The translations under genes were made by a program, and so were the position numbers. Below the pieces are notes generated by a model. It was given only the letters and a program-made list of their open reading frames with translations. It was not told the DNA's origin and ran no database searches. Positions 2,599-28,516 of a stretch of 64,000 nucleotides of DNA are shown piece after piece. Location of the stretch: contig JAJFUE010000185.1 of assembly GCA_021372575.1 (NCBI GenBank), positions 14,018 to 78,017 of the forward strand, read 5' to 3'. Numbering within the stretch: position 1 is the first letter of the stretch; every line of letters begins with the position of its first letter. The stretch comes from a bacterium (GTDB lineage: Bacteria > Sumerlaeota > Sumerlaeia > MVZB01).

Positions 2599-4452
2599 TC
2601 AGGACCCAGGGCTGTCTTTTACGGGCAGCTTTACAAGCACTACTGTTCCGTAGCCGAGTTCGCTCCCAATTTCGACACTGCCACCGTGGCGCTCGATGAT
2701 TTCGTGGACGATCGCCAAGCCGAGGCCGGTCCCCGCAACCTCCATCCCCGGTCGGTGCGCGCGATAGAAACGCTCGAAAACATGCGGCAGATCGGTTTGC
2801 GAAATGCCGATGCCGGTATCGGTCACGGTGAGTGTCAAGCCGTCATGGTCGCCTGATGCGCCGACCGTGATCGTACCGCCGGGGGGGGTGAACTTGATGG
2901 CGTTGCTGAGGATGTTGATGAGCACGCGCTTGAGAGCCTCGAGATCGCCGATCGGGCGCGGCAGTGACTCGGCGATTTCCAGCTTCAGGGTCAATGCCGA
3001 CGATTCGATCACCGGCGAGAGCATGGTGCAGGCGGCCTCGATGAGCGTGGGGATTTCAATCAAGCGCCGCTCCATTTTCATACGGCCGCTTTCGAGGCGC
3101 GAGATCTCGAGCATATCCTCGATCAAGGCCTCCAGCCGCTGCGTCTCCTGGTCGATGATGTCGAGGAACTGGTTGCGCAGCGATTCGGTCATGGCGCCGT
3201 CCTGGCGCAGCGCCTTGGTGAAGCCCTTGATCGAGGTGAGCGGCGTTCGCAGTATGTGGCTGACCGAGCCGACGAAATCGGTCTTGAACTGGTCGATCTC
3301 TCGTTCGCGGGTCACGTCGCGCAGGATAAGAACCCGGCCGGCGATGCGGCAGGCCGGATCGACCCATGCGCTCGCCACGATGCGTAGCGTTCGCGGGCAG
3401 GGCTCGTGCAACACGAGCATGATCTCCTCGGCCCGGTCGGGCTGGCAGGCTTCGAGCATTTCCTTGAGGCGCGCAGGCGGGGGCGTGCAGTCGCCGAACA
3501 GCGAGGCAAGCATGCTGCCGGTGCCGGCCTGTCCGGTCACCTCGAGGAGCCCACGCGCGATGTGATTCATCATCGTGACACGATGATCGAGATCGGTGAC
3601 GATGACGCCATCGCCGATGCCGCGCACGATGAGCTCGAGGCGCTTGGCTTCCTGGTTGAGCCGCTCGTTGACGGTCTTAAGCTGCTCATTGGCGAGAGCG
3701 AGTTCGGAGGCCTGGCGCCCGACCTCGATCTCGGCCTCGCGCCGGGCTGTAATGTCTAGCCCGTAGAGGTTTAAATACTTTTCACCGGCCACCGGGGCGC
3801 AGACTATCAGCCATGTGTGGCCAGCAACGGTCAACTCGAACTGGCAGACAAGATTGTCGGCGAGGCAGCCGCAGACGCGTTCGAGCGGCTCCGACGGCAG
3901 CGGCCGGCCGACCTGGACCGACCATGCCTCAAGGAGTGGCGCGCTCGCCGTGTTGGCATACGTCAGCACGCCGGCATCGTTCACACGCATCACCGGATTG
4001 GGATCTACGGCCGGAAAGCGCGCCATGCTGGCCAGCAGCGTGCACATCTGTGTCTCGAGCGTGACGTCTCGGATCGAGCCAAAGTATCCTTCGATCGCGC
4101 CATTCGCATCGCGGATGATCGTCGCCGTGACGAGCGCATCAATGACCACGCCGTTGAAGGTATCGAGAGTGAGCCTGGCCTCACGGACAAAGCCCTCCTG
4201 CTCAAGGCGTCGGAAGAAATCTTCGCGAAGAGCACGGTCGGTGATCATCTCGGCGAGCGAGATTCCATCGCAGCCAAGGCCAATTCCGAGCAGGCGCACG
4301 GCGGCCGAATTAAGCTCAATGAATCTGCCGGCGGAATCAACCATGAACCACGGCTCGGCGACCTGCAGGAAAATACGGCGATAGTGATCGGGATCGGAGT
4401 CACACAAGTTGACACTGCCGCACATTTCTATATTCAGTCTCGCGAGGTCCAT
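2599..4452 (-). CDS. Cytoplasmic multi-PAS sensor histidine kinase
   Basis: H-box FVGSVSHILRTPLTSIKGF and HATPase G-boxes DTGIGI / GTGLGLAIV. Long N-terminal PAS-like repeats and no obvious TM segment. SD GGGAGGGG lies before the ATG at 4452. Confidence 0.9.
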   Translation of the reverse strand: MDLARLNIEMCGSVNLCDSDPDHYRRIFLQVAEPWFMVDSAGRFIELNSAAVRLLGIGLGCDGISLAEMITDRALREDFFRRLEQEGFVREARLTLDTFNGVVIDALVTATIIRDANGAIEGYFGSIRDVTLETQMCTLLASMARFPAVDPNPVMRVNDAGVLTYANTASAPLLEAWSVQVGRPLPSEPLERVCGCLADNLVCQFELTVAGHTWLIVCAPVAGEKYLNLYGLDITARREAEIEVGRQASELALANEQLKTVNERLNQEAKRLELIVRGIGDGVIVTDLDHRVTMMNHIARGLLEVTGQAGTGSMLASLFGDCTPPPARLKEMLEACQPDRAEEIMLVLHEPCPRTLRIVASAWVDPACRIAGRVLILRDVTREREIDQFKTDFVGSVSHILRTPLTSIKGFTKALRQDGAMTESLRNQFLDIIDQETQRLEALIEDMLEISRLESGRMKMERRLIEIPTLIEAACTMLSPVIESSALTLKLEIAESLPRPIGDLEALKRVLINILSNAIKFTPPGGTITVGASGDHDGLTLTVTDTGIGISQTDLPHVFERFYRAHRPGMEVAGTGLGLAIVHEIIERHGGSVEIGSELGYGTVVLVKLPVKDSPGS

Positions 4453-4534
4453 TGCAATTTCCCCTCCCTGTTAAAAGACTACTTCTCACCCCATAATGAT
4501 CGAAAGATACGTTATGTTATCCTCATCCATCAGC

Positions 4535-6106
4535 TTATTTGCAAAATCCTTTCCATTCAGATTGCAATTCCTCTCCTGAGTTAAATATAAATTTCATGAT
4601 GCCCTTTATGGTGACATTGTTCATGGCTTTTTCGTCATTCGACCGATGGACGGTTAATTCGACGATCGCTTGATCTATTTCTTCCTTTATTATTTCTATT
4701 TTTGCGGATATATGCGGCCCTTGCGCGTCCATTTTATTGAACACTTTGTCGATCTTTACAGGCTTGCCCGAATGTCGTTTTACCACAAATGTCTTGGTGG
4801 CATTCCCATTAGGCTTCAATACCCCCACATTAATATTGTTCGGCGCAATATAAATATCGCTCACGATATTCATTGTCACGGGAATGCGTATATCAGGATT
4901 TCCTCGCACCTTTGTTGCTATCTCCAAAGTGCCTCTTATGGGCCCGTAAGGCTCATTGTCTGGTATCGCCGTCTTTATCATCACTCGATATTTTATTGGT
5001 GTATTATCTATTGATACGATGCTCCGCTTGGCCGGCCATGACAAATCTACAGTCTCCTTCATTTTCCCTTCCGGGACATATTTGATTTCCGTAACAGGAG
5101 TATATTCTTTTTTCGCGATCTGTTCATATTTTATTTCGGTTCCCTCGATCATCAGGTCATGTTTTCCATCGCGTTCGGTCACTTCTATGTCCTGCGATAT
5201 CGTTTGCCCAGGATAGACATCACCATAATCCAATATGCTTTTCGATATATGCACTTTCTCATTTATAAAACCTGTATATTGCAACTCAGTTGTAGTCGAT
5301 ATCGGGTCATTGCTTTCAACGTACACCGAAAGATTTTGATATCCCGCACGTCCTAGCGCCGAAAGCAGCACAGTTATTTCAGCCATCTCGCCTGGGTTTA
5401 AGACAGGCTTGGATGCCGTCGCGCTCGTGCACCCACAACTTTTTTTTATGCGATTTATCATTAATGGCGCCCGTCCAGCGTTCCTGAACGGGAAACGAGC
5501 CCTTAACATTTCACAGGATTCAGTAGATCCAAAATCCATCAAGAGAGTATCGAATTCCAGGCGCGGAACTTTTTTAGCCTGCGCCATCTCTTTGCGCCGA
5601 ATAACCAGCGATTCGCCATGCCAGTATGTGCTTATGTCATTTTTACTTATCCACTCAGACGCCATTCCAGGACGATACATCCTCACCTCTTTGTGATTTC
5701 TCGGGTTTCTCTCCCTTGGGTCAACGCAACAATAATGATTATTATTGACATATATTATGACAGGGGTATTCAACTTGACCAGATCCGACCATGTCAACTT
5801 GACTCCCTCCGCCTGCAGTCCATACATTTCGGCAACTTGCTTGAGCCGAAACATTGACGCGCCCTTTTCGGTCAATTCACAAGCGTTTATTAAATCCGTA
5901 AGATCTAATGCTTTGCCAAGCCGTGCTGCGGCTATTCTTAAGGATATTGGCCCGCATGCGCGATTATTGCCAGCATCCGCAGGCTCAAATACATTATTAT
6001 CGGGCGCGTTATTCCATCGTACGGCCCCCAATATTGAGAAAGCTATAAATAGTGCGCACATAAACGCTATCAGATACATGCGATAACGACGAATATAGTT
6101 TTTCAT
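4535..6106 (-). CDS. Signal-anchored C39-like cysteine peptidase fused to DUF1573/Ig-like repeats
   Basis: The N-terminus KNYIRRYRMYLIAFMCALFIAFSILGAV is a positive-inside anchor. The C39-like core has NRACGPISL (catalytic Cys context) and NNNHYCCVD (His). A DUF1573 signature follows (FDFG...FxFxNxG...L.I..V..SCGCT, here MDFGS...FPFRNAGRAPLMINRIKKSCGCT), then two more beta-rich repeats. Confidence 0.75.
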   Translation of the reverse strand: MKNYIRRYRMYLIAFMCALFIAFSILGAVRWNNAPDNNVFEPADAGNNRACGPISLRIAAARLGKALDLTDLINACELTEKGASMFRLKQVAEMYGLQAEGVKLTWSDLVKLNTPVIIYVNNNHYCCVDPRERNPRNHKEVRMYRPGMASEWISKNDISTYWHGESLVIRRKEMAQAKKVPRLEFDTLLMDFGSTESCEMLRARFPFRNAGRAPLMINRIKKSCGCTSATASKPVLNPGEMAEITVLLSALGRAGYQNLSVYVESNDPISTTTELQYTGFINEKVHISKSILDYGDVYPGQTISQDIEVTERDGKHDLMIEGTEIKYEQIAKKEYTPVTEIKYVPEGKMKETVDLSWPAKRSIVSIDNTPIKYRVMIKTAIPDNEPYGPIRGTLEIATKVRGNPDIRIPVTMNIVSDIYIAPNNINVGVLKPNGNATKTFVVKRHSGKPVKIDKVFNKMDAQGPHISAKIEIIKEEIDQAIVELTVHRSNDEKAMNNVTIKGIMKFIFNSGEELQSEWKGFCK

Positions 6107-6198
6107 TATAGCATCGCCTTTTCACGCCTTACAGTATGACCCCAAGAGGTAAATCCCTCAATGCAATACTTAGTCGAAGAGCGGTGAATGAATTATAT

Positions 6199-7194
6199 CT
6201 ATTTGACAATTCCCTGGGATATATCGCTTGGCAATGGAACTACCACAAAGGGCATTCCATCTGCATCTATGCGGCTGAAGTCCATGATGGATGTGTCGGA
6301 AGGATAATTTGTCACACTATTTATGGATGCATCAAACAATGTCTGATCGTGAGTTGTTATATATTTTGTTATCCTTGTGGTCATCTTATAACTCCTTATT
6401 GGGAATTCCAGATCGCCATTGGCATACATGGGCAATTCCGCGTTCCAGTAATTCTGCGATTTGCATGTGAACAAAGGTTTTTCATGGCCGGAAAGAGTGA
6501 AAGATGCGCTTCTTACCAAATAATCGTGTTTGGTATCTATTTCCATCCGCCACATTCCTTTGTCCGACGAAAAGAGACTGCCTGGTCCCACTACGGTTGC
6601 AATCCCACCAGAATCGACCGTCGATGAAGTAATCGTATCGAGCAATTGAGAATAACCCCTGCCAAGAGATAAAAGATATCTGAAAAACAAATTCTCAGGA
6701 TCATGATGATTGACCGGATAGAGTTCAAGACGGGCGGCAAGTGCATCTGTTAATAAACTCGCTTCGCCTGTTTCTTTGAGAACACAATTGTCGTATTCTG
6801 ATCTGATCTTCCATGACGCGCCATCAAATGCGATGGTTCGCATTTTCATATTTGTCACAATGTAATTACCGGCACTGTCATAATCAAGAGGATTAGCCTT
6901 CTTTGAATAGCGAGATGCCCCAAGCAACGTCCTATTCTGAACCAAGGCGTATTTCCCATCATTTCCTGTGATTTGCAAGGTAAAGGTGCTTGGATCCTGA
7001 TCGACGCCTACGTTGGATTTACAACTCACAATCAGGTTCACGTTAAAATTGGATAAAAATTGAGCATCATAGGAATCTAATATGTCCTTAATGCTTTGGG
7101 CCTCGGCCGGATTAAAATGTTGCAACAACATAATCTGAACAAAATATACACACACTGTCATCATGAGTGAGCGTTGGCGGATTGACATCATCAT
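6199..7194 (-). CDS. Secreted hypothetical protein (no recognisable family)
   Basis: Signal peptide with AEA|QS. Low-GC gene, tightly packed between the Cys-rich gene and the C39 gene. Confidence 0.6.
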   Translation of the reverse strand: MMMSIRQRSLMMTVCVYFVQIMLLQHFNPAEAQSIKDILDSYDAQFLSNFNVNLIVSCKSNVGVDQDPSTFTLQITGNDGKYALVQNRTLLGASRYSKKANPLDYDSAGNYIVTNMKMRTIAFDGASWKIRSEYDNCVLKETGEASLLTDALAARLELYPVNHHDPENLFFRYLLSLGRGYSQLLDTITSSTVDSGGIATVVGPGSLFSSDKGMWRMEIDTKHDYLVRSASFTLSGHEKPLFTCKSQNYWNAELPMYANGDLEFPIRSYKMTTRITKYITTHDQTLFDASINSVTNYPSDTSIMDFSRIDADGMPFVVVPLPSDISQGIVK

Positions 7195-7215
7195 ATGACT
7201 CCATTAGTACAATAT

Positions 7216-7761
7216 TTAACAAATTATTAATCCATATCTTGTGGAAGACTCGATCAAAGTGCCGTCACAACCGGATGTATCGCAACGAAACCGAAATGCT
7301 CGCGGCGTACAATCGTGTCCAAAATGATGGACATATAAAACACGGAGTTCGCCCTGATAACTGGCTGCACAGCCAATGGAAGCCCTATAATATTGGATGA
7401 GAGACACTTGTTTTGTATTAATCGTCGCACTGCAACTAGATCCGCCATTTAAAGGACAATCGGCATCAAATATGTAATTGGCGATACACGCATCTGTTGC
7501 ACAAGGCTGAGGATAATCTTCCGTGTGGAAACATTCATCTTTTCTAAAAGCTGCATATTTACACCCCCCGCAGCAATCTCCCCCATGGATCGCTTGCATT
7601 TGTGAATCCGAAAGGGGGGATGATGCACAATTCATCTTGAGCGATAAAATCACGAGTATGCCGATAATGACGATCAATGCCGTTGCGGAGATGGTAAGTA
7701 GTGACTTCACGAAATAGCAATCCTTTGAGTTAATGTGATGAGCCGCTGAGAAGCGCCTCAT
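7216..7761 (-). CDS. Cys-rich exported protein with signal anchor followed by a double-glycine motif
   Basis: N-terminal TM segment SLLTISATALIVIIGILVILSL, then LSDSQMQAIHGG|DCCGGC. About 14 Cys occur in the ~120 residues after the GG. An alternative internal start, MNCASS at 7635, would give a 19-aa GG leader. Confidence 0.6.
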   Translation of the reverse strand: MRRFSAAHHINSKDCYFVKSLLTISATALIVIIGILVILSLKMNCASSPLSDSQMQAIHGGDCCGGCKYAAFRKDECFHTEDYPQPCATDACIANYIFDADCPLNGGSSCSATINTKQVSLIQYYRASIGCAASYQGELRVLYVHHFGHDCTPRAFRFRCDTSGCDGTLIESSTRYGLIIC

Positions 7762-7809
7762 CTATCGTTCACGCTTTCATGAGTGAGGTCTAAGTCCACC
7801 ACTCCCCTT

Positions 7810-8517
7810 TCACCTTTGGCCTCCCATTGATTTGCCCACTTTTGTCTCAGCTGGCGGCTTGGTCATTGCGGAATTTTTGCGGGTTAATAACCCCACTCCT
7901 GTTGCCGATTCTCTGGGCCTGAGATATTCTTTTAAAACTCTGTGACCCATATAACCCAACGGCAGCGCAATCAATATTAGGCACACTGCCGCCAGCATTT
8001 CAATGGGCACCCCGACCCTTGCAGAATTTCTGTAGACCATATCTCGAACTAATATTAACGATTCTCCGGCCCCGATATATTTTATTAGCACTTGTTGACC
8101 CATGTAGCCCAACACCGGCAGCGCAATCACTAATATGCACATGGCTGCGGCCAGCTTATAACCATATCGCCTGAACCCGGCTGCACATGTTTCGCGGTAG
8201 GTCGCCTGCTCAGTCTCGCACTCATTGATGCGAACCATAAGGTTCGCGACCTGTTCCTCGATGCTTGGCTCGCCCGCCATCCCGCGCCGCAGCTGCTCCA
8301 AATTATAGCAAAGCTCGGAAGTCCGTTCCCACTCGGCCCGGCATTCGGGACACTCGCTCAAGTGCTTCTCGATGGCGCCAAACTGAAGCCGGGACAGCGA
8401 GGGATCCCAGTGGTGATAAGCGCCCAGACGCAACCTGACCCACCGGCAACTGGGTACGCGGCCAGCAAGCAATTGCAGGCATTCTTTCAACCCACGGGCT
8501 ATTCTTCTCAGCTTCAT
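7810..8517 (-). CDS. Anti-sigma factor (zf-HC2) with duplicated TM hairpin
   Basis: HLSECPECRAEW zinc-finger anti-sigma motif. Two near-identical TM modules are present (CILVIALPVLGYMGQQVLIKYI and CLILIALPLGYMGHRVLKEYL). It lies downstream of an ECF sigma gene. Confidence 0.75.
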   Translation of the reverse strand: MKLRRIARGLKECLQLLAGRVPSCRWVRLRLGAYHHWDPSLSRLQFGAIEKHLSECPECRAEWERTSELCYNLEQLRRGMAGEPSIEEQVANLMVRINECETEQATYRETCAAGFRRYGYKLAAAMCILVIALPVLGYMGQQVLIKYIGAGESLILVRDMVYRNSARVGVPIEMLAAVCLILIALPLGYMGHRVLKEYLRPRESATGVGLLTRKNSAMTKPPAETKVGKSMGGQR

Positions 8518-8552
8518 CTGCCTTTGCCCTCTCTTCTGCCCTCTGCATAGAC

Positions 8553-8580
8553 ATGTCGAAAAGGGACGATTTTATAACAT
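8553..8580 (-). promoter_or_regulatory. ECF-type promoter candidate ATGTTA-N15-TCGACAT
   Basis: Motif read on the minus strand, 35 nt upstream of the anti-sigma ATG. The same bipartite motif occurs at 12391-12417 (-) and 28490-28516 (+). Confidence 0.45.
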
Positions 8581-8638
8581 CGACGCATAAAAATATTTCA
8601 ATTATTTTGGGGATGATTGATATTATATGAGTTACGCA

Positions 8639-9202
8639 TCAGCTTTTCTTGTCTTTTTCCATGATCGCGCGAAGACGGGCGCGTGCGCGCCACTCATAAA
8701 CCTGAATAGATGCCTCCCCCAGCCCTAGCCGGCGAGCTGCCTCGGCTTCCGAGCAGCCCTCGAAATACAGCAGGTTGATTACATGCCGAAGCCGGTCGGG
8801 CAGTTGCGCGACAGCCTCGCGAAGTTGGTCCAGACCTTCTGCCTGTGTGTCAGAACCCGAGCCGCTCTGAGTTACCGACCATGTCTGGGCTGTTTGCTTG
8901 AGTTCTTTTTCGATCCGCTTAGTTTTCGACACCTGCCGCCCCTTGGCCAAGAGCAGTTTCTTGGCGATCCCGAACAGATAAGGGCGGACCTTGTCTTTTT
9001 CGATCCTCCCCCGCTTGGCCCAATATGTCAAAAAGCTATCTTGGACCAGGTCTTCCACATCGTCCCGTCGGATGTTACGGCCAGCAAAAAAGCGCGCGAG
9101 CGCGGACCAAAGATTTCCATAAGGCTCGTCGGTGGGCCCGAGATCAGTATTGGAAGACCTATTGTCCAGCTTTTTCATGTGTTCATGATGGTTCCCTGTC
9201 AA
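8639..9202 (-). CDS. ECF-family RNA polymerase sigma factor (copy 1)
   Basis: Region 2 reads DVEDLVQDSFLTYW. Region 4 HTH reads LPDRLRHVINLLYFEGCSEAEAARRLGLGEASIQVYEWRARARL. The likely ATG start is at 9178. Confidence 0.85.
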   Translation of the reverse strand: MTGNHHEHMKKLDNRSSNTDLGPTDEPYGNLWSALARFFAGRNIRRDDVEDLVQDSFLTYWAKRGRIEKDKVRPYLFGIAKKLLLAKGRQVSKTKRIEKELKQTAQTWSVTQSGSGSDTQAEGLDQLREAVAQLPDRLRHVINLLYFEGCSEAEAARRLGLGEASIQVYEWRARARLRAIMEKDKKS

Positions 9203-9507
9203 ACCCTGGGGTTATTCTTCCCGAAAATTTACGCCGGATGCAATCTTCAAGTGTTTCGTTCGGACATTTCCCCATAAATTCCCACGCTTAGCGAAGGAAA
9301 ACGGATCGGTCTGGGTCGAATCCTCAGCGTGTGTTTGATGAGGCTCGAATGAAGGTCGCAGGCGGTTGCGCCAGACGATCGAGGTGGCTCGGCAGGGAGG
9401 ACATGCTGGAGACGGCACCCAGAGCAAGCCGCGCGACCGGACTCCGCATGGACGGACGCATGGGAGAGTAGTCAGGTCGTGATTCTCACCACTAATCTCT
9501 ATCACCA

Positions 9508-10467
9508 CTAGAATATATCAGGTAGCAACGATTGGATATCATCGATCTTCGGAAGATCATCATCCCAATACCGCAAGGACTTGCCGTCGTGGATCAGGTA
9601 AAAGCGTGGTGGTGCATTGCCGATGAATTCAAAGAACTTAAGCGGCTGAACACGTGCCATTGGGAATTGGGGCTTGAACTGCTCGCGGAACTGGCGGAGG
9701 GTGTCTTCCTCGCCAAGAATCAGGCCGACAACCGGTAACTCGCCGAACTCCTTGACAAGAGTGTTCATCCTCGAAACCAATTCCTGGCAATGCGAACAGG
9801 AATCACTCATAAAGCCGACAAAATATATACCCTTGCCCAAGTCGAGAGCTCGATTTGAATCGTCTTTGATAGCGAACTGCGCAAAGGGGCGATCCGTTGT
9901 GGTGGGGGGCTTTGCTACAGCCAGCCCGGCGTCAGACTTGACCGGTTTACCGCCCCAAAAGCTCCAGGCGAGACTGGCAATCAGCAAAAGCGGGCAGAAT
10001 GCGGCACATGCCGTCTGCAGTTTCTTGCTCCTGATATCCAATTCAAACGATTGGCTCTGAAATGATTGCGATGCACCACTTATTGCGATCACATTCATTC
10101 CGATCATGATAACATTCTTTATAATCGAGGCAATCGGCGATATTTTGATGAATGAGCCGAAACACCCGCAGTCTTCGAGGCCTTTGAAAAGCCAGCCGTA
10201 AACGATGATCCCGGTGAAGAAGATGAGTATCGCCAGGGAGAGCTTCAAGCATTCCACCCTAAAATGCTTACTTATGATCATGACCAAGCCGAGGAGAAAC
10301 TCGATAGAGATTATGAAAATGGCGATGGCTGTGACAAGTGTTGGGTTACGAATAATGTTAAAGTATGAGATCAGCATGGCGAAGCTTTGGACTTCGATTG
10401 CTTTCGCGATGGAGGAAAGCAAGAAAATGCTTCCAAGCAGGCAGGTAGTGAAGATGAACCGCTTCAT
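9508..10467 (-). CDS. MauE/DoxX-like membrane domain fused to TlpA-like thioredoxin (CxxC)
   Basis: Multi-TM N-terminal half with the CGCFG motif typical of MauE. The C-terminal thioredoxin fold has FMSDSCSHCQEL. Start taken at MKRFIF. Confidence 0.75.
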   Translation of the reverse strand: MKRFIFTTCLLGSIFLLSSIAKAIEVQSFAMLISYFNIIRNPTLVTAIAIFIISIEFLLGLVMIISKHFRVECLKLSLAILIFFTGIIVYGWLFKGLEDCGCFGSFIKISPIASIIKNVIMIGMNVIAISGASQSFQSQSFELDIRSKKLQTACAAFCPLLLIASLAWSFWGGKPVKSDAGLAVAKPPTTTDRPFAQFAIKDDSNRALDLGKGIYFVGFMSDSCSHCQELVSRMNTLVKEFGELPVVGLILGEEDTLRQFREQFKPQFPMARVQPLKFFEFIGNAPPRFYLIHDGKSLRYWDDDLPKIDDIQSLLPDIF

Positions 10468-10945
10468 TTGATTTTCCGACTGTCTGATCACTTTGAATAA
10501 GATTTCTTTGAGATTGCATCGACCGGCATATCGAGACATATGGAGCCGATCGAGACTTTTGCATTACCCATTACCGCACTCTTGGGTGATATTTTGCGAC
10601 GGATGACGTTTCCGTTCAACACAAATTCGTGGTGGTGTCATACCCCATTAGAAATGTCACCCCAACACCGCCTTGCATTTGCGCGATGATTGATTGCTCA
10701 GGGCCGAAGATAGGGTTCCATGGGGACGCGACCCGAGCACCGCACCGGAGGCCGAAGCAGAGCGGGTGCGGCCCTTGCGAGCCGTCCCTCTCTTTTTGCC
10801 ACCACGGTCCGTCCCCGACTATTTCCGGCCGGCCCGTCCTCGATCCTACTTCGGGTTGGAAGAATCGACAGAAGGCGTGAAGAGAAGAAAAGAAAACCCG
10901 GAAAATCCAACACTGCACCACTATCTTAGCGCTAATCCGGACAGT

Positions 10946-12361
10946 CTATTCAATAGTTGTTATTTGTGAATACGCAACCCATCCTTTCTTCATATTGGAA
11001 TGAAGATGGGCATGCATTTCGATCACGAGGCCAAGCCTAAATGCGTACTCATCTGTAATGCACGATTTAGAATCATATTTTATCCTAACAACATCATTAA
11101 GCACTTCACTACATGTTTTTGACAACGTCCTCCATCGCAAATCCGGTATGCAGCGTGATGTGATAATTATATAAATCAGCGCCCGTCTTAACCGAATATG
11201 ATCGCCAAGTATTTGATCCGCATAATCATAATCGGCTTTCTCGACATTGCCTACCGATTTATTTTCATGGCCAGATGTTGTTTGGTCCGGATCTCCTGAT
11301 ATTGGGATAAACGACACAAGCGCTTTTGGGAACCGGCCTTCAATTGACAAATCAGAATAATTGAGCGGCGGCAATTGTTGTTTACCGCCATCTTCAAGTT
11401 GCAACATGCAACCAGCAATCGCTGCGGCGCGTTTCATGGCGTCGATCGTGGGTCGGACGTTGGGGTCTTCGGGCTTGATCGGGTAATCAAAACGGAAAAT
11501 CTCGCCTGAGTAGAAAACAAGCGCGCGCCAGCCGGCCGGCCGAGTAACTTCATCGGTCCAAATCTTCTTGGCCCAGTCGGGGATATAAGCCGGCTTGCCG
11601 TTCCAGTTGATGCCGTATTCGGGTTTGGTGAGAACGTCATAAACCCACATGATGTGCGGGTATTCCTTGCGCGCCCAGGCTTCCCACTCGGCCTCGGTGT
11701 GCGGCAGCATCGCCTCGACCTGCACCTGCGCCAGGGTTTGTTCGAATCTCCGGTCTAGCTCAATCAACGATTCGGCAGGAAAGCTATTGAGGCGATCATA
11801 ACGAATTGTTGAGTGATCGTTCGCCGCGTGATGTCCAGGCTTGAGCACGACGATTTGATTTTCACATTTCGTTGAATCCGATAATCGAATATAGGCCAAT
11901 GCGTCCTTTGATTGTTTGTGGTAATCAACCAGATATTTACCGATCTGCGCAAGAACGGGAAAGCCTAAGGCGAGCAAGCATACCACCGCGAGACCGTAAG
12001 CCCATCGTCGAGCACAGACTCTTTTGGGGCTCTTGAACTCTCTCGACCTGCTGGTTTCGTATTTGGCAATTTTCAATAATGCTGCGGACGCAATGTCATC
12101 CGAATTTAAGTGGCTTGGCTCCTGGTTTCTGCGCAGTTGCTCAACGCAATTGCACAAGGAACAGGTGGCCTCCCACTCGGCCGCGCATTCGGGGCAGTGA
12201 GCAAGATGTTTCTCAATTGCGGCATATTTGCGGCATGAGAGCGAGGGATCCCATGCGTAGTAAGCCCCAAGACGCAATTGGACCCAGGCGCAACCGGGAT
12301 CCTTCCCCAGCATCAGCGTGAAGCACCTTATCATCGCGTCTATGGTTTTTATAAAGCCCAT
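10946..12361 (-). CDS. Anti-sigma factor (zf-HC2) with one TM and a ~320-aa extracytoplasmic domain
   Basis: HLAHCPECAAEW. The N-terminal ~90 aa are clearly paralogous to 7810-8517 (WVxLRLGAYxxWDPSLS...AIEKHL). The TM segment is LAVVCLLALGFPVLAQIGKYLV. Confidence 0.75.
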   Translation of the reverse strand: MGFIKTIDAMIRCFTLMLGKDPGCAWVQLRLGAYYAWDPSLSCRKYAAIEKHLAHCPECAAEWEATCSLCNCVEQLRRNQEPSHLNSDDIASAALLKIAKYETSRSREFKSPKRVCARRWAYGLAVVCLLALGFPVLAQIGKYLVDYHKQSKDALAYIRLSDSTKCENQIVVLKPGHHAANDHSTIRYDRLNSFPAESLIELDRRFEQTLAQVQVEAMLPHTEAEWEAWARKEYPHIMWVYDVLTKPEYGINWNGKPAYIPDWAKKIWTDEVTRPAGWRALVFYSGEIFRFDYPIKPEDPNVRPTIDAMKRAAAIAGCMLQLEDGGKQQLPPLNYSDLSIEGRFPKALVSFIPISGDPDQTTSGHENKSVGNVEKADYDYADQILGDHIRLRRALIYIIITSRCIPDLRWRTLSKTCSEVLNDVVRIKYDSKSCITDEYAFRLGLVIEMHAHLHSNMKKGWVAYSQITTIE

Positions 12362-12390
12362 CTCCAACCTTGCAACCCTTTATAATTTAT

Positions 12391-12417
12391 ATGTCGAGCA
12401 CAGGGCATTTTTAACAT
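12391..12417 (-). promoter_or_regulatory. ECF-type promoter candidate ATGTTA-N14-TCGACAT
   Basis: Minus-strand motif about 29 nt upstream of the anti-sigma ATG (12361), within the 100-nt sigma/anti-sigma gap. Confidence 0.45.
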
Positions 12418-12469
12418 TTCAAGAAGAATATATTTTTGAAGACACCTTATAATACTGATTCTCTTTATC

Positions 12470-13030
12470 TTATGACACATCGGATCCCGGCTCCGGGGTT
12501 TCGATTTCTATCGATTGAAGCATAAGCATTTGTCCCAATCTTTGAATCGCACGATGATCGGCCATATACACCGCCGGCATCGAGATTCCAAGTTCATGGG
12601 CGACATCCGCGTGGGTTTTTCCTGCGAAATGAATCAGTTCGGCAACTTGTCGTAGTCGCGGCGGCAACAACTTGATCATTGCGCGGATTCGTTTCATCAT
12701 CGATTCGTCATGTTCTTGTGTAGTATTTTCCTGAACAGACACGATGATCGGCCATGCATTGATGAGTTGTGCCCGTCGCTTTGCCTCGAGGCCCATTTTC
12801 CGGCGATAAGCGAGGGTGAGTTTATGGGCAATACCGAATAGAAAGGATCGTTCTTTGCCTTCCTGGATTTCATTGCGTTTAATCCATAAGGTTAAGAGGC
12901 AATCCTGTATCAGGTCATCGATATTGTCCGGATGCACGCCGGTGGAGCGAATAAATCGGCTCAACGCTGCACTATGCTCCCTGCATAGGGCCCTTATCGT
13001 TTCCTCCGTGAACCTGGGTGGGTGTTTCAT
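12470..13030 (-). CDS. ECF-family RNA polymerase sigma factor (copy 2)
   Basis: Region 2 reads DDLIQDCLLTLW. Region 4 reads LPPRLRQVAELIHFAGKTHADVAHELGISMPAVYMADHRAIQRL. Confidence 0.85.
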   Translation of the reverse strand: MKHPPRFTEETIRALCREHSAALSRFIRSTGVHPDNIDDLIQDCLLTLWIKRNEIQEGKERSFLFGIAHKLTLAYRRKMGLEAKRRAQLINAWPIIVSVQENTTQEHDESMMKRIRAMIKLLPPRLRQVAELIHFAGKTHADVAHELGISMPAVYMADHRAIQRLGQMLMLQSIEIETPEPGSDVS

Positions 13031-13042
13031 ATTTTATTGAAT

Positions 13043-15418
13043 TTATTTCTTTTCCAACTTGCGAATGTATTCTTTTGCCTGGCGCGTGAATTGGCCACTT
13101 GGATAAAGATTGGCGAGATCATTAAAAGGGCGCACGGCTTCCTCGAGCTTGTTTTCCCTAATGTAAGAATAACCAATCAAATACAAAGCGCGTTCGCGGT
13201 ATTGCCGCGAATCACGATTCTGGACAATCGAGAGTTCATTGCGTGCATCGTCGTAACGCGAGGCCCCAATCAAAGCAAGTCCCAGCAGTGTGCGAACTGG
13301 AATGTCCTGGTATTCTTTCGGAAGCGTCTTTATAAGCGAATTTAAATCCATAACCGCCCGCTCGTATTTCTGATTATCCATTAATATTTTTGCAGCGCGC
13401 AACCGGGCATTATAGTCGTATTCGGTATTCTGGCAGATTCTTGATAATCTCTTCTGAATACCGATTGCATTCTCCGGCTGCTTGAGCTGTTTCTCATACA
13501 GGTCTGTTATCCTATTCGCCACACCGACGATGAAAGTGGTGGTCGCACCCGTTGAATATGAATCTACGATTTTCGTCAGGTGGCGTATTTCATTTTCATA
13601 CGAATGAATACGATTGTATTCATCCGCCATAAATAAATGGTACTTTTCGCCATACGGAACAGGCTCGATGGCTTTTTTAGATTCGACATTCGCATCCATC
13701 CATTTGAGCATTTTGGCCACGTCATAGTTATCGTAATGCTTCGCAAGTCTCTCCTTCAGAAATGTTCCGATTTCCTCCACGTTGCTCGATCCGTTACTGA
13801 ATCTAGTGGCCATATCATTCAGTGCGATCTGGATCAGTTCATCACGATCGCTCGATATATTCATAGTCAGCCCTGCAATTTGCGAGAGCGTTGATATTTG
13901 GGAATATTGATCCTGCAATGAGGCAAGTCGGCTGTATTCACTCGTTTTTTTCGCACCAGACGAGGACTTCTTTTTTAGATCGGCCTCGCGGGTTAGGATT
14001 TCATTCCTCAAGGGTTTAATAAAATCAGGGTCCGGGGAGCGGTCCACAATCCATGTAAATATCTTTTTTGCAGAAGCTGTGCACCCAAGAGCCTTTGGCA
14101 TATTTCCAAGATTATTCCATATTTCTGCTTCATCGAGCAGGTTGCATATTTGTGCGCTGACGCGGCAATAAGAAAGCAGGAATGCACTGTTATGGTCGCC
14201 AGATAATTTCTCGAGTTTATCAAACGGGATTTTCATAGAGTATTGCCGGTTTAACAGAGGATCTGAGATAACGTTGATACTGTTCGCCGCACCGTCAATT
14301 CGCATCCTGACGCCTTCGCTGATAATTGAATACGCCTGCGTTTGCGACGGCGATGACTCCGCAAGCCGAATCGAGATCGGGTCCCTGATGAAGTAATCGC
14401 TGGAGGTATTTCCGGTGAACGTCGTCTTCCGCAAACTGACTTCTATGGGTTTACCGCTACCGGCTATAGAACTTAGGCCGATCGTATTATTACGAATGGA
14501 GCAGTTTTCAACAATGAGTCCAGGACAATTGAGCCGATTCAGCTCAACCCCAACGGAATTGTGATGAATGATGGTGTCCTTGATTTTCCAGTGGATGCCC
14601 TGATTTTCCTCGAGCTTAAGCGCCGAAGATGTTGAGCCGTCAAACGTGCATGCGGAAATGACTGACGGATAGCTGGTTGACCCTTGCAACGCGTTTCGAT
14701 TCCCATTGATATAAACGCCATTAACATTACTTGTGAACGTGCATTTGTTCATGTTGAGTGTTGTGGAACTGTAGCCTTGGGAAATCCTGACCAGAACGCC
14801 GGTTCGGTTTTTGGAAAACGAGATGTTTTTGGCTTCAATGTGGCTTTGCCGACTATTTTGCACGACCATAGCATCAGTCTTGTGCTCCGAGAACGAGCAA
14901 TTTTCCAAGTGTATATCGTTGGATATGCTGTTCATATACATCCCGTTGATTCTTACGCCCTCTCCCCGATTCTTCGCGAATGTGCAACCGACAATATTCA
15001 AGCTAATATCATTCAGCACACTTATGCCAATTCCATAATTCTCGAAGATATTCATATCGCAGAGGGAGAGGCTTGTCGGCTTTTTTGACTTCGAGACGCG
15101 TATAGCATCGTCCATGCATCGGTTTACAATGATGCCAGACAGCGAAACAGTACCGGCCTCATCGCAGACCAGAATGCCAGGACCGGTAGGATTATTGATG
15201 ACTAGTTTTTTATTTGCATCGCCAGCGATCGTGATGTTCTTTTTTAGAACGATTCCTTTTAGATATACATAACCTGCTCCCACATGGATCGTATCGCCCA
15301 TACTTGATTTTTCGATCGCTTCACCGAGATCCTTGATATCCTGCGGAACACGAACGTCTTTCGCCAGTGCCACGGAAGACAATACGAGTATCATGATCGA
15401 TTTAAGAATCAATTTCAT
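13043..15418 (-). CDS. Secreted right-handed beta-helix (PbH1 repeat) protein with C-terminal TPR region
   Basis: Signal peptide ALA|KD. Repeated xNCxFxxNxxxGVxI units are present (e.g. VGCTFAKNRGEGVRING, ENCSFSEHKTDAMVV, NKCTFTSNVNGVYING, ENCSIRNNTIGLSS). The C-terminal third has TPR-like helices. Confidence 0.7.
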   Translation of the reverse strand: MKLILKSIMILVLSSVALAKDVRVPQDIKDLGEAIEKSSMGDTIHVGAGYVYLKGIVLKKNITIAGDANKKLVINNPTGPGILVCDEAGTVSLSGIIVNRCMDDAIRVSKSKKPTSLSLCDMNIFENYGIGISVLNDISLNIVGCTFAKNRGEGVRINGMYMNSISNDIHLENCSFSEHKTDAMVVQNSRQSHIEAKNISFSKNRTGVLVRISQGYSSTTLNMNKCTFTSNVNGVYINGNRNALQGSTSYPSVISACTFDGSTSSALKLEENQGIHWKIKDTIIHHNSVGVELNRLNCPGLIVENCSIRNNTIGLSSIAGSGKPIEVSLRKTTFTGNTSSDYFIRDPISIRLAESSPSQTQAYSIISEGVRMRIDGAANSINVISDPLLNRQYSMKIPFDKLEKLSGDHNSAFLLSYCRVSAQICNLLDEAEIWNNLGNMPKALGCTASAKKIFTWIVDRSPDPDFIKPLRNEILTREADLKKKSSSGAKKTSEYSRLASLQDQYSQISTLSQIAGLTMNISSDRDELIQIALNDMATRFSNGSSNVEEIGTFLKERLAKHYDNYDVAKMLKWMDANVESKKAIEPVPYGEKYHLFMADEYNRIHSYENEIRHLTKIVDSYSTGATTTFIVGVANRITDLYEKQLKQPENAIGIQKRLSRICQNTEYDYNARLRAAKILMDNQKYERAVMDLNSLIKTLPKEYQDIPVRTLLGLALIGASRYDDARNELSIVQNRDSRQYRERALYLIGYSYIRENKLEEAVRPFNDLANLYPSGQFTRQAKEYIRKLEKK

Positions 15419-15456
15419 GTTCGTCTCCCCGGTTTGCTGTCAATCGAAAACGGTTT

Positions 15457-17457
15457 TCATATATAATAAAAATATTTATCAATCAAATAAAGCTTGGCAT
15501 TGCTACTCGGCATCGACTTCATCTTTTTGAGGATGTCGCGCGCCTGCGACTGATCGTTATTATAGAGCGCAATCCATGCAATCCAAGATGCGGCCTTGAC
15601 TCGTTCATCATTGAACAGCTGGGAGCTTTTTTCGCCGTTCTTGAGCGCCTGCTCAAAATATTTGCATGCGCCTTTGAGATCGGGAGGATTCTGATTGAGG
15701 TAAACAAGGCCCAGCCAATTTAACATTTGAGACTTCTTAAGTTCGTTCTGGTCTTTTGATTGGAGGAACTTGTTTGCCGCTTCCTTGATGCCGGCATAAT
15801 CATCCTGGTAATACATTGCCTCCATTGGTCCCTGCACGGCGGGCTTTTCGCCTTTCATCCATTCGATCAAATACTTGCGGGCTTCCCGTTCATACTGGTC
15901 AGCTTTACTTATCTCGCCGCCTGATTTCAATTCCGCCGCATAATTCAGTTTCGCGATACCAACATAGAGTCTGGCATTGGCGGCCACTTCGCCTTCAGGG
16001 GACTGCTCAATCAACTTGCAAAGCGCTTCCGAGGCTTCGGCCCATCTTGCACGCCGGAAATCGGTCATGGACAACAGGAATTGCAATCCGTAACGTCCAG
16101 TCTGATCCGGCATCTCCGTCAGGCTTGTTTGGATCAATTGCCTGGCTTGGTCAATTTCCTTTCCAAGGATCATGCAATTGAAGAGATTATACTGGGCTGT
16201 ATTCTTCATGTCTTCAGAGGTTGTTGGATAATTTGCAATGAAAGCCGTGATGGACGTTTTAGCCGCCGCCCATTTTTCCTGGTGATAGGGAATCATCGCA
16301 ATCTGGTAGGCGATCTTTGCAGCGCTTTCGGTATTCGGATATTGGGCAATGTATTGTTTGGCCGCCTGCTCAAATGCCGGGCTTTCAATGTTCATCAGGC
16401 ACAGGACACGATGATAATCGATCGTGCCCTGGCGCCCTTTCATTAAATCATTGTTGGCCGGCTTCTGCTGCACCCATGAGTCAATCGCGTTGTAGCATTC
16501 TATGGCCTTGTTCCATTTCGCACGGGCAAAGTAAGACTCCCCATGTTCATACAACAGGATACCGCGATCTGCCTGATGTTCCGGCTTGGGGAGGGCAATT
16601 TTCATCGCCTCATCGAGCGAATCGTATTTTTTCAGTTTCAAATCGCACTGAATCTCGCGCAATTCTATCTTGGCGACCAGCGATTTATCCTGGATGCCGG
16701 ACTTTTTGAAGTTCTCAATCAGGTCCATTGCCTGTTTGAATTGATTTTCTACCAGTTCAGGTTTTTCCCCTTTTTGAACCATTTCCACCCCCAACATGTA
16801 AGCCGTGTTCACAACATAATACTTTGACTGCCGGCATATTCCCTCATCAGGATCCGCCGTCGCCAAGCGGCTGAATTTCTCATGGGCCTTGGGGTATTCC
16901 CTTCGGTTCAAAGCTGCCTGGGCATCCATGAACAATAAGCTCGAACGTTGTGTATGCTTCGGCTTTTCAATCAGGACTTTATTCACATACGGTTCGACCT
17001 GGTCATATTTCCTGGTCTGCATCCAACTGGAAACCAGATATCGATCAACTTTATCCCTGTTCATCGTATGCAACTTGTTATATTTTTCGAGGTATTTCAT
17101 GGAGACCGATATGACCTCTTCATATTTGCGCTCTCGATAATAGACGCCGATAAGATTGGAGATCAGATCCGCGGTATATTTGTTATTCGGATAATTATTT
17201 TCAAAATTACTCGCCAAATTGAGGAATGCAGCGGTATCTTTTTTGCCCAAGAATGATATCGCCTTCACAAAAGTCAGGCTTCCAACGATATCACGATTGG
17301 CAGCATTGGATTTAATGTAATCGTCGGCCAGCCTGATTGCTTCATCGTAATTTTTAGATGCATACTTTCCCATAACTTCCTCAACCGGTGCTGCCGCAAC
17401 AACGATTGGAGATATTAATAAAGACAATAACACCACCCCATGAAACAGCAGTTTCAT
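15457..17457 (-). CDS. Secreted TPR-repeat protein
   Basis: Signal peptide, then many Y/A/L-patterned 34-aa helical repeats. The ATG at 17457 is preceded by GAGGTG. Confidence 0.7.
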   Translation of the reverse strand: MKLLFHGVVLLSLLISPIVVAAAPVEEVMGKYASKNYDEAIRLADDYIKSNAANRDIVGSLTFVKAISFLGKKDTAAFLNLASNFENNYPNNKYTADLISNLIGVYYRERKYEEVISVSMKYLEKYNKLHTMNRDKVDRYLVSSWMQTRKYDQVEPYVNKVLIEKPKHTQRSSLLFMDAQAALNRREYPKAHEKFSRLATADPDEGICRQSKYYVVNTAYMLGVEMVQKGEKPELVENQFKQAMDLIENFKKSGIQDKSLVAKIELREIQCDLKLKKYDSLDEAMKIALPKPEHQADRGILLYEHGESYFARAKWNKAIECYNAIDSWVQQKPANNDLMKGRQGTIDYHRVLCLMNIESPAFEQAAKQYIAQYPNTESAAKIAYQIAMIPYHQEKWAAAKTSITAFIANYPTTSEDMKNTAQYNLFNCMILGKEIDQARQLIQTSLTEMPDQTGRYGLQFLLSMTDFRRARWAEASEALCKLIEQSPEGEVAANARLYVGIAKLNYAAELKSGGEISKADQYEREARKYLIEWMKGEKPAVQGPMEAMYYQDDYAGIKEAANKFLQSKDQNELKKSQMLNWLGLVYLNQNPPDLKGACKYFEQALKNGEKSSQLFNDERVKAASWIAWIALYNNDQSQARDILKKMKSMPSSNAKLYLIDKYFYYI

Positions 17458-17793
17458 TTTCACACCTCGCGGTTGCACATATTTACCCGCCGGATAGGTT
17501 ATGACCCCCCGCCAGCAACGCCCAAGACTAAAATATTTACAGCCCCAGCCTCCGCAGTATAGCAGGATATTTCGTAGAAAGAGGTGATATTAATTGATCT
17601 TCTTTCATTCTTGTAAGCTTCTAACGTAGGTATGTTCGACATGTCAATTGAAATATTGATAACTCAAAGCTTAGCATTGTAATATTTACCGTGCGCGCGT
17701 TTAAGCCCCCCCAGTGCAAGTTATTGAGATATAGGGCTTGAAAAAAATGAAATACTAAGTAATCTTGCGCCATTGCTATCGTGGATTTCAAAA

Positions 17794-18171
17794 ATGGCGC
17801 GCTACATCAACCCACCAAGTCCGATAAGGGGAGTTCTTCTGCTGGAGCTCGCGTTGTCGATGTTGATCATTTCTGTGGCCCTGCTTGGCCTCATGGAAGG
17901 CTACCGCGCATCCACGGAAGCCAATGCGCGTTATGATCGTATGGCGGATTTACAGCTCTTGGCCGACCAGAAGATCGCGGAGCTCTCGCAACAAGCGCAA
18001 TTCAAGACGGGCCAGGACGAGGCTGTTTTCCAAACCAAACCCGACGTGAGTTGGCAAACCGTTACGGCTGAGACTGCTGCCCCGAATTTATACATGATCA
18101 ATTTAGAAGTATCGAAGCAGTCCGATAATTTTCGTATATCCCTCTTTATGAGGCCGAAGAAGGCGCAATGA
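17794..18171 (+). CDS. T2SS minor pseudopilin, GspI-like
   Basis: Prepilin-like N-terminus RG|VLLLELALSMLIISVALLGL (Glu at +5). Small size and a C-terminal beta region (DVSWQTV...LYMINLEVS). Confidence 0.6.
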   Translation: MARYINPPSPIRGVLLLELALSMLIISVALLGLMEGYRASTEANARYDRMADLQLLADQKIAELSQQAQFKTGQDEAVFQTKPDVSWQTVTAETAAPNLYMINLEVSKQSDNFRISLFMRPKKAQ

Positions 18172-27942: not shown

Positions 27943-28391
27943 TAGCGATGCGGCGCCGTGTCGGATTCACACTCATCGAGATCATGCTGGTCATGCTCAT
28001 TCTTTCGCTGTTGACGGGAGTCGCCATGACCAGGATGAAAGCGGCTTTTGATGACGCCGCATTGAGCACCGACGCGCAACGGATTGAAAAGCTGATTCAG
28101 GTCGCTCGTAAACGCGCACGACTGGAAAACAAGATCTACCGGATCAGCATCGATCAGAATAATTCCAGCTACACCATGGAACATGCCGCCGCCGCCGAGG
28201 GCACGTTCAAGCATCCTTCTGATATTGATTACGAATATACGCTTTCGGTCGGGGTCACATTTGCTGAGGTGCGCGCAATCAGGGCCAACCAAACACAGCA
28301 TGAATCGATCTATGCCTACCCGGATGGGCAATATGATCCGCTGGCCATCACCCTTATCAACTCCGCCGGCGACACTCGAATCATCGACTGA
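27939..28391 (+). CDS. T2SS minor pseudopilin, GspH-like
   Basis: RRVGFTLIEIMLVMLILSLLTG is a canonical prepilin motif. About 145 aa. GTGA overlap with gspF; an alternative ATG is at 27948. Confidence 0.65.
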   Translation: MIAMRRRVGFTLIEIMLVMLILSLLTGVAMTRMKAAFDDAALSTDAQRIEKLIQVARKRARLENKIYRISIDQNNSSYTMEHAAAAEGTFKHPSDIDYEYTLSVGVTFAEVRAIRANQTQHESIYAYPDGQYDPLAITLINSAGDTRIID

Positions 28392-28489
28392 ACCAGTTAT
28401 TTTGCACATCCAGATCATGAATATGCGCGGTAAAAACCAGCGCATATCGGCCTAGCTGTTCAATAAATCTGAAAATATTTTCACTTCCG

Positions 28490-28516
28490 ATGTTAGATTC
28501 CGCATCCAATCGACAT
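28490..28516 (+). promoter_or_regulatory. ECF-type promoter candidate ATGTTA-N14-TCGACAT (third copy)
   Basis: Same bipartite motif as the two copies upstream of the anti-sigma genes, here on the plus strand 229 nt upstream of the ATG at 28746. Confidence 0.4.

Follow-up and report, generated by a model that had tools for sequence, protein, structure and literature searches.

Gene content of the locus

The window analysed here, the whole 64-kb stretch (64,000 nucleotides, nt) of contig JAJFUE010000185.1 from a bacterium of the Sumerlaeota, carries two genes for extracytoplasmic function (ECF) sigma factors, each followed by a gene for a putative anti-sigma factor. Both of the sigma/anti-sigma gaps contain a bipartite element, ATGTTA-N14/15-TCGACAT, and a third copy precedes an unlinked operon. 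These three sites (Table 1) are the subject of this report and are proposed below as candidate promoters for an ECF sigma of the cluster. The source organism is Sumerlaeia-like: the window's GspE is 84% identical to GspE of the metagenome-assembled genome (MAG) Candidatus Sumerlaeia 5_bin.191.

From ~17.5 kb down to ~1 kb, every gene lies on the minus strand. The order begins with two TPR genes and a beta-helix/TPR gene, followed by sigma 2, site 2, anti-sigma 2, an open reading frame (ORF) of 101 amino acids (aa) and a gene for a MauE and thioredoxin-like membrane protein. It continues with sigma 1, site 1, anti-sigma 1, the 181-aa and 331-aa ORFs, a C39 peptidase-DUF1573 gene, a histidine kinase gene and a gene for a sigma-54 activator.

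The first-pass annotation had read the genes flanking the element as ECF sigma and anti-sigma genes, and the protein sequences bear this out. The upstream ORFs contain sigma regions 2 and 4 only and match the sigma70-ECF superfamily model TIGR02937 with 61.0 bits (sigma 1) and 54.6 bits (sigma 2), above the cut-off of 42.9; neither reaches the cut-off of any ECF subfamily model. An alternative TTG start of sigma 1 at 9202 finds no support in the orthologous locus L082. The downstream ORFs both carry the pattern C-x27-H-x3-C-x2-C followed by a hydrophobic segment. An N-terminal H-x3-C-x2-C with an upstream Cys, encoded beside an ECF sigma gene, is the signature of the zinc-binding anti-sigma (ZAS) type. 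In anti-sigma 1, the residues C24-x27-H52-x3-C56-x2-C59 are invariant in five sequences and the N-terminus is confirmed by orthologues. The zf-HC2 profile (PF13490) scores 19.8 bits in anti-sigma 1 and 17.5 bits in anti-sigma 2, just below its cut-off of 22.2, and the 'antisigma' profile NF052375, whose cut-off is 100, gives 27 and 22 bits. When all ORFs of the window were searched by phmmer with the two sigmas and the N-termini of the two anti-sigmas, no third sigma or anti-sigma factor was detected.

Regarding the cargo genes, the 181-aa ORF has a Cys-rich core after its leader and a weak match to the GG-leader RiPP domain TIGR04149. Together with the C39 peptidase-DUF1573 protein and the MauE/thioredoxin-like protein, it looks like an export and disulfide-maturation set. 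The same cargo families recur beside this sigma/anti-sigma family in five other loci (L082, L086, L087, L088 and L194).

Table 1. Positions of the motif sites, the surrounding genes and a conserved upstream block in the 64-kb window
Feature	Position	Strand	Description
Site 1 motif	ATGTTA 8580-8575, spacer 15 nt, TCGACAT 8559-8553	minus	read from the strand
Site 1 block	8539-8598	minus	A/T tract AAATATTTT 8598-8590; TAT 8549-8547; AGGG 8542-8539
Site 2 motif	ATGTTA 12417-12412, spacer 14 nt, TCGACAT 12397-12391	minus	read from the strand
Site 2 block	12376-12435	minus	A/T tract AAATATATT 12435-12427; TAT-containing A/T stretch; AGGG 12379-12376
Site 3 motif	28490-28516: ATGTTA 28490-28495, spacer 14 nt, TCGACAT 28510-28516	plus	
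Site 3 block	28473-28531	plus	A/T tract AAATATTTT 28473-28481; TAT 28520-28522; AGGG 28528-28531
ECF sigma factor 1	8639-9178	minus	Pfam Sigma70_r2, Sigma70_r4_2, Sigma70_ECF
ECF sigma factor 2	12470-13030	minus	Sigma70_r2 and Sigma70_r4_2; last gene of the TPR / TPR / beta-helix-TPR operon (13043-17478)
Anti-sigma factor 1	7810-8517	minus	zinc-finger type, membrane-anchored; first gene after site 1
Anti-sigma factor 2	10946-12361	minus	zinc-finger N-terminus, large C-terminal domain; first gene after site 2
181-aa Cys-rich protein	7216-7761	minus	double-glycine leader LSDSQMQAIHGG; follows anti-sigma 1
331-aa protein	6199-7194	minus	no assigned family; anti-sigma 1 cargo
C39 peptidase-DUF1573 protein	4535-6106	minus	anti-sigma 1 cargo (cargo span 4535-7761)
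101-aa ORF	10616-10921	minus	follows anti-sigma 2 (gene span 9508-10921)
MauE and thioredoxin-like membrane protein	9508-10539	minus	follows anti-sigma 2
Conserved block 5' of sigma 1	9203-9330	minus	counterparts in L081 (~2500-2640) and L082 (~520-660); by alignment, motif absent
Operon after site 3	28737-32644	plus	secreted 284-aa ORFan, 604-aa and 373-aa proteins; none with a family match

The bipartite element

Two copies of the element had been described on the minus strand, at 8553-8580 and 12391-12417, 29-35 nt upstream of the anti-sigma starts and inside gaps of ~100-120 nt. Both are present as described, 35 nt from the ATG at 8517 and 29 nt from the ATG at 12361, in gaps of 121 nt (8518-8638) and 108 nt (12362-12469), respectively. 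The heading of that description, which placed the motif between each sigma gene and its anti-sigma gene, is right for both pairs but incomplete, since the third copy (28490-28516) has no sigma gene as a neighbour.

At the three intergenic sites, two boxes are separated by a nearly fixed spacer, with a core spelled TGTTA-N15/16-CGAC, and the element always points towards the downstream gene. ECF promoters generally carry AAC in the -35 element and CGT in the -10 element, as in the TGAAAC-N16-CGTA of Bacillus subtilis sigma-W; their cores lie about 16-17 nt apart, and transcription begins 6-10 nt beyond the -10 box. The AAC core is absent from the window sites, which carry TGTTA in its place. 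The -10-like core is CGA(C) as against the CGT(C/A) of ECF promoters, so that the C and the G are kept and the third base differs.

Alignment of the sites brings out further shared parts. An AAATWWWTT tract lies 8-10 nt 5' of ATGTTA, a TAT follows TCGACAT after 4-5 nt and an AGGG after 10-11 nt; outside these parts, the three site regions do not align. From the end of TCGACAT to the next start codon there are 35 nt at site 1, 29 nt at site 2 and ~220 nt at site 3. The AGGG is unlikely to be a ribosome-binding site because it is too distant from most start codons. It is also present 10-11 nt after CGACAT in the orthologous loci L081 and L082, and AAGGC occupies that place in L083.

Site 3 lies 3' of a type II secretion-like gene set (secretin, GspE, GspF and pseudopilin) and of a hairpin that follows the pseudopilin gene. 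The first ORF behind it (28737-29591) encodes the 284-aa secreted protein, for which no homologue was found among 5.8 billion proteins. In the closest genome (L089), the gene order 3' of the pseudopilin gene differs from that of the window. The 224-nt leader of site 3 (28522-28745, plus strand) folds somewhat better than shuffled sequences (z = -1.88; 5 of 200 shuffles as good), holds a 48-aa ORF (28580-28726) and has no match in Rfam.

Occurrence by chance, duplication and search controls

The exact pattern, with a spacer of 13-16 nt, occurs three times in the window against an expectation of 0.02, and none of 100 shuffles reached three. When the two gaps were shuffled, any 6+7 bipartite match common to both appeared in only 83 of 20000 trials. 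Coding DNA makes up ~93% of the window by a crude ORF map, and each of the three exact matches falls between genes and points towards the following one.

It could be argued that the element is a chance resemblance or a repeat remnant without function. A post-hoc search over all 13-base bipartite words would, by our estimate, be expected to yield ~0.6 triples in 64 kb, and the motif was recognized post hoc. The shuffling of the gaps and site 3, which is an independent prediction, serve as fairer tests. The third site, the A/T tract, the TAT, the AGGG, the placement and the conservation are all independent of the discovery of the motif, and the sites are not covered by any longer repeat family. 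Taken together, these points make a functionless origin barely credible. The motif is also not the remnant of a recent duplication, since the two sigmas are only 34% identical, the anti-sigma N-termini 39%, and the gaps cannot be aligned outside the shared parts.

Relaxed searches of the window (up to two mismatches, or the TGTTA..CGAC core) gave extra matches at chance level, at 29341, 27095 and 13505, all within coding DNA. An intergenic TCGACAT at 17637 on the plus strand was set aside, being the complement of a TTGACATGTCGA box on the opposite strand. A wider scan with AAATWWWTT-N8-10-ATGTTA-N14-15-TCGACAT gave 6 matches in genomes and 19 in metagenomes, all of them in organisms that are unrelated and mostly A/T-rich; the matches come with no sigma or anti-sigma homologue and mostly without a downstream ORF. 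Four of the matches (L170, L172, L173 and L185), all in sample ERZ1740055, represent a single unrelated repeat. This repeated element, AAATTTTTTGGTTTGTTATGTTAAGGACAGTTTTTTGTCGACATTTTCAACAATC, is found on several contigs (also L175 and L186) of an organism with 33% G+C, with no sigma genes nearby, and its match to the pattern is accidental.

Conservation of the element in related loci

The sigma/anti-sigma family is rare. The protein collection holds three non-self homologues of anti-sigma 1 and 17 of anti-sigma 2. A search of genome contigs with the sigma alignment returned only generic ECF sigmas at no more than 35% identity, and a search of genome and metagenome contigs with the anti-sigma alignment returned nothing. 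The comparison below covers ~10 loci.

Two loci from other samples, L081 and L082, are orthologous to the sigma 1 module and keep the gene order of the window. Their sigmas are 83% and 73% identical to sigma 1, and their anti-sigmas 61% and 59% identical to anti-sigma 1. The motif and the spacer of L081 are identical to those of site 1. L082 reads ATGTTA-TAAAATCGACCCCTT-CCGACAT, where the sole change in the motif is T to C before CGACAT. The distance from CGACAT to the start codon is 24 nt in L081 and 29 nt in L082. In the alignment of the window with both orthologues, 33 of the 37 columns in the block that runs from CGATGTTA to TATG show no change, compared with 28 of 56 in the gap upstream of it and 8 of 32 downstream. 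P0003, a third orthologue, stems from a gene call at the edge of a contig; its product contains VDVMKSTPFDMSMQ, as the motif would encode.

More distant relatives retain part of the element. L083, from the 5_bin.191 lineage, is syntenic with the anti-sigma 2 module and has a 143-nt gap with CTGAAA-N14-TCGACAT; MauE and redoxin genes likewise follow its anti-sigma gene. L084 and L085, which encode homologues of anti-sigma 2, carry CCACCCCGACAT. In L194, one sigma gene is followed by two successive cargo modules (small genes, a C39-rhodanese protein and MauE), each preceded by a GTATGACAAATC.GC...TCGCGACATGTAT box (also written GTATGACAAATC..N..CGCGACATGTAT). What the element marks is therefore the beginning of a transcription unit and not specifically the sigma/anti-sigma junction. 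L086 and L088, which belong to a different sub-branch of sigmas, have an 80-nt gap with ACGTATAC in place of CGACAT; the two gaps are identical, but their comparison is uninformative since the flanking coding DNA is also 96% identical.

In total, CGACAT stands directly 5' of the anti-sigma or anti-sigma-like gene in six of the eight related loci, where 0.26 would be expected, and it is present in four of five independent lineages (P ~1e-5). It follows from this survey that the -10-like box is the constant of the family and that the -35-like box varies by lineage.

The synteny with L083 also extends to the TPR / TPR / beta-helix-TPR genes before sigma 2 (13043-17478, minus strand; 2785-9179 in L083). 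Divergence between these two loci is fast, with 43% identity for the beta-helix protein and 28% for the sigma, while GspE stands at 84%.

Transcription of the sigma genes

The motif is absent upstream of sigma 1 and upstream of the sigma 2 operon. The copy before the sigma gene itself that would signal positive autoregulation, which is usual but not universal for ECF sigmas, is thus missing from both modules. Instead, the region 5' of sigma 1 holds a separate conserved block (Table 1), which reads ..GATTGCATCCGGCGTAAATTT.CG..AA.AATAACCCC....GGGAACC.. and probably serves the sigma 1 gene as its promoter and leader. The gap upstream of the TPR operon of sigma 2 contains a TTGACA box, with a counterpart in L083.

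No terminator-like hairpin was seen on the gene strand of either sigma/anti-sigma gap, so some read-through from the sigma into the anti-sigma gene is expected. The motif is then probably also transcribed from upstream, and it could serve as a processing site, an attenuator or a translational element within the read-through RNA. Weak hairpins can indeed be drawn in L081 and L082. However, the fold energies of the gaps are no better than those of shuffled sequences (z = -0.5, +1.4, -1.1, -1.3 and -1.1), Rfam gives no match even at E values up to 1, the distance to the start codon is variable and site 3 lies outside any such transcript. An RNA element is accordingly considered very improbable.

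The proposed promoter and alternative explanations

From the observed motif, its non-random occurrence, its conservation and its placement, we infer that the three sites are promoters, and we propose for each a start position and a class of reading sigma. In our estimate, the probability that RNA polymerase reads them with an ECF sigma encoded in this cluster, either sigma 1 or sigma 2 or both, is about 0.62, which makes an ECF-dependent promoter in this uncultivated Sumerlaeia-like bacterium probable. ATGTTA would be the -35 element and (T)CGAC(AT) the -10 element, the A/T tract 8-10 nt further 5' would act like an UP element, and transcription would start around the conserved TAT, ~8-11 nt after CGAC. 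The sigma genes would be transcribed from other promoters upstream. Free sigma would then fire the internal promoter and produce more anti-sigma, giving negative feedback and a fast shut-off. The same firing would raise the genes behind, which encode the double-glycine-leader Cys-rich protein, the C39 peptidase-DUF1573 protein and the MauE/thioredoxin-like protein, and it would extend to the unlinked operon of the ORFan secreted protein at site 3.

The first-pass annotation had offered the core of this model, with ECF-type -35 and -10 elements in the gap, a sigma-dependent anti-sigma gene with its cargo, and a sigma gene read from upstream. Much of it stands as a sequence-based prediction: the two boxes with their 14/15-nt spacer lie on the coding strand, are conserved, are absent before the sigma genes and come near the promoter of Tt-RpoE1 of Thermoanaerobacter (Caldanaerobacter) tengcongensis. 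Its restriction to the sigma/anti-sigma gaps does not stand, given the third site.

A promoter of a housekeeping or other non-ECF sigma is one alternative. TGTTAnnnn would then be an extended -10 element (TGnTAnnnT) with a distant -35 element TTGAAA, TTCAAA or CTGAAA, and TCGACAT would fall in the early transcript or serve as an operator. ATGTTA and the bases after it do read TGTTATAAA, TGTTAAAAA and TGTTAGATT at the three sites, with a TTGAAA-like hexamer 19-21 nt 5' of each. That spacing is too long, though, and the key final T of the -10 element is missing at two of the three sites. An invariant TCGACAT at a fixed 14/15 nt would be left unexplained, the relatives retain CGACAT but lose TGTTA, and matches to the generic sigma-70 consensus in these regions are at chance level. 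This alternative appears quite unlikely. Three other promoter assignments were rejected: TCGACA as a sigma-70 -35 box has nothing resembling a -10 element 16-18 nt downstream; a promoter on the opposite strand would have the boxes in the wrong order and only antisense DNA downstream; and a sigma-54 promoter would show GG-N10-GC, which is absent.

Another possibility is that the element is not a sigma contact but an operator, bound by a repressor or activator that co-ordinates the three operons. The spacer and the downstream bases are conserved in the orthologues of site 1, short inverted repeats can be discerned (ATGT..ACAT, TCGAT-N8-ATCGA and CCCT..AGGG), and a further shared element, AGGG, stands 10-11 nt after CGACAT. 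On the other hand, the two halves of the element are asymmetric, its spacing varies by 1 nt and it invariably points the same way as the downstream gene. The inverted repeats measure only 4-6 nt, are imperfect in the window and are absent at sites 2 and 3. Moreover, across genomes the element goes with this sigma family, and it varies together with region 2.4 of the sigma. An operator in place of a promoter is thus unlikely, whereas an operator overlapping a sigma-dependent promoter would be compatible with the ECF model.

The inverted repeat around the -35 box of the sigma 1-type sites, (G)TCGAT-GTTATAAA-ATCGA(C), lies at 8570-8586 (minus strand) in the window, 3241-3264 in L081 and 1236-1257 in L082. 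Its arms match perfectly in L082, while L081 shows a G.T pair and the window a T.T mismatch. The repeat may explain why the spacer is conserved at these sites.

Several observations weigh against an ECF promoter at the three sites. The region 4.2 helices of the two sigmas are dissimilar (SIQVYEWRARARL in sigma 1, AVYMADHRAIQRL in sigma 2), yet the hexamers that they would face are identical. The -35 position is not conserved in distant relatives, with CTGAAA in L083 and no clear hexamer in L084 and L085. Tt-RpoE1 recognises tGTTAC-N16-CGTC, and the Asp of the DXXR motif in its region 2.4 reads -12G (PMC3397946). In the sigmas of the window this Asp is Ala, the -10 core is CGAC(AT) instead of CGTC, a difference of a single base, and TGTTA and CGAC stand 15-16 nt apart instead of 17 nt, which brings the boxes 1-2 nt closer. 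At site 1, the spacer conserved in orthologues and the short inverted repeat TCGAT-N8-ATCGA around the -35 box mean that another protein could bind there. Finally, the comparative set is small (~10 loci), and its members are partly related by descent.

Sigma factor specificity

With dissimilar region 4.2 helices facing identical hexamers, at least one assignment of a site to its 'own' sigma may be wrong. Either both sigmas read the motif or one of them reads all three sites, cross-controlling the inhibitor of the other; a sigma encoded outside the window is a less likely reader. Sigma 2 is nearer to sigma 1 (34% identity) than to its positional counterpart in L083 (28%), which uses CTGAAA. A comparison of the region 4.2 helix with the -35 variant gave no readable code among seven sigmas.

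In region 2.4, the DXXR motif is lacking in both sigmas, which have AKGR (sigma 1) and AYRR (sigma 2) at this position. An A-x-x-R (AKGR, AYRR, AYLR or AFLR), in the context ..LFGIA...A-x-x-R, is found in all relatives with CGACAT, and the sigma of L086/L088, which faces ACGTATAC, has a canonical D-x-x-R (DVLR). This two-clade co-variation of region 2.4 with the box is what would be expected for a sigma contact, although it is suggestive only.

The boldest version of the model would have a single sigma read a non-canonical promoter (GTT and CGA for AAC and CGT, with sigmas that lack the DXXR Asp) common to two divergent modules and an orphan operon. By driving the inhibitor of the other sigma as well as its own, it would form a cross-inhibiting network of purely negative feedback, devoid of positive autoregulation, that governs how double-glycine-leader Cys-rich proteins are exported and matured in the uncultivated phylum Sumerlaeota. 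This full version is doubtful.

Implications

If confirmed, the element would provide the first handle on a promoter and a regulon for ECF signalling in Sumerlaeia-like bacteria, a lineage without cultured genetics. It would mean that a whole sigma/anti-sigma family keeps an internal promoter before the anti-sigma gene and not the usual autoregulated one before the sigma gene, and that these pairs are linked to C39 peptidase, DUF1573, MauE/thioredoxin-like and double-glycine-leader cargo. It would also add a sigma/promoter pair with an unusual -10 element (CGAC) and an A-x-x-R region 2.4 to the study and engineering of promoter specificity. The current understanding of ECF systems is unchanged by the finding. 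The circuit and even the -35 element have experimental precedents, so that the result would be useful for regulon annotation in a poorly known phylum and unsurprising to the specialist.

Other features of the window

In 2-kb bins, the G+C content is 43-49% at 4000-18000 (with 53.5% in the 8-10 kb bin) and 44-48% at 28000-32000, the region of the ORFan operon, against ~57-64%, mostly ~60%, elsewhere (34000-38000 and 42000-64000). Each of the three motif sites stands at the head of a low-G+C segment, and these segments may be of horizontal origin.

A tRNA-Asp(GTC) gene lies at 77-154 on the plus strand. Its 3' ~57 nt are repeated at 39448-39504 and 55143-55199 (95% and 82% identity). These copies sit inside longer repeats (39339-39500 and 55034-55195, 85% identical) and resemble attachment-site remnants of integration; no integrase was found among the ORFs scanned.

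A partial duplication relates 32832-33237 to 40254-40788 (segments 73-84% identical) and links the short ORF 32800-33063 with a macro-domain gene (40216-40716) and its downstream neighbour. Within the minus-strand ORF 44411-45541, positions 44801-45301 hold six 81-nt (27-codon) repeats in tandem, 63-71% identical.

Comparison with known systems

The closest known promoter is that of Tt-RpoE1, defined by scanning mutagenesis, band shifts, in vitro transcription and a mapped start; its CGTC lies at -13 to -10 and is followed by TATA (PMC3397946). The window sites share with it the bipartite ECF architecture, a -35 element TGTTA(C) in place of GGAAC, and a C-G-N-C -10 element followed by an A/T-rich stretch that contains TAT. 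The departure from the classic ECF promoter noted in the first-pass annotation is real, in that GTT and CGA replace AAC and CGT, but its oddity was overstated, as TGTTA is a validated variant of the ECF -35 element. Besides the differences in the -10 core and the spacing, the base after TGTTA is not C at the window sites. The Tt-RpoE1 promoter also lies 5' of the sigma gene and serves positive autoregulation, whereas the sites here stand between sigma and anti-sigma.

As for ECF promoters in general, their usual place 5' of the sigma gene, reflecting autoregulation, has been used for promoter prediction (PMC7826278). The architecture and the spacing range of the element match this class, L083 combines CTGAAA with the same TCGACAT, and L086 and L088 carry ACGTATAC. 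The window sites differ in having GTT for AAC and CGA for CGT and in lacking a copy 5' of the sigma gene.

The placement of the motif, in the gap and not before the sigma genes, fits circuits in which the anti-sigma gene has its own sigma-dependent promoter. In Corynebacterium glutamicum, housekeeping promoters upstream yield a joint transcript of sigH and rshA, and rshA by itself has an additional SigH-dependent promoter, for which a role in fast shut-off has been proposed (PMC3489674). Adjacent sigma and anti-sigma genes, an extra sigma-dependent promoter for the anti-sigma gene and a ZAS-type anti-sigma are common to both systems, the arrangement in the window being predicted only. The two differ in that RshA, a soluble redox sensor of small size, is transcribed on its own, whereas the anti-sigmas of the window are membrane proteins heading multi-gene cargo operons; furthermore, the SigH promoter is unrelated in sequence (GGAA..GTT type) and belongs to another phylum.

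A further precedent is found in Streptomyces venezuelae, where the rsbN promoter is a direct target of BldN (PMC6101532). RsbN belongs to another structural class, its promoter is also repressed by BldD and the promoter sequence is unrelated. What the BldN/RsbN pair has in common with the predicted arrangement in the window is that the gene of a cognate membrane anti-sigma has a promoter of its own, targeted by the ECF sigma.

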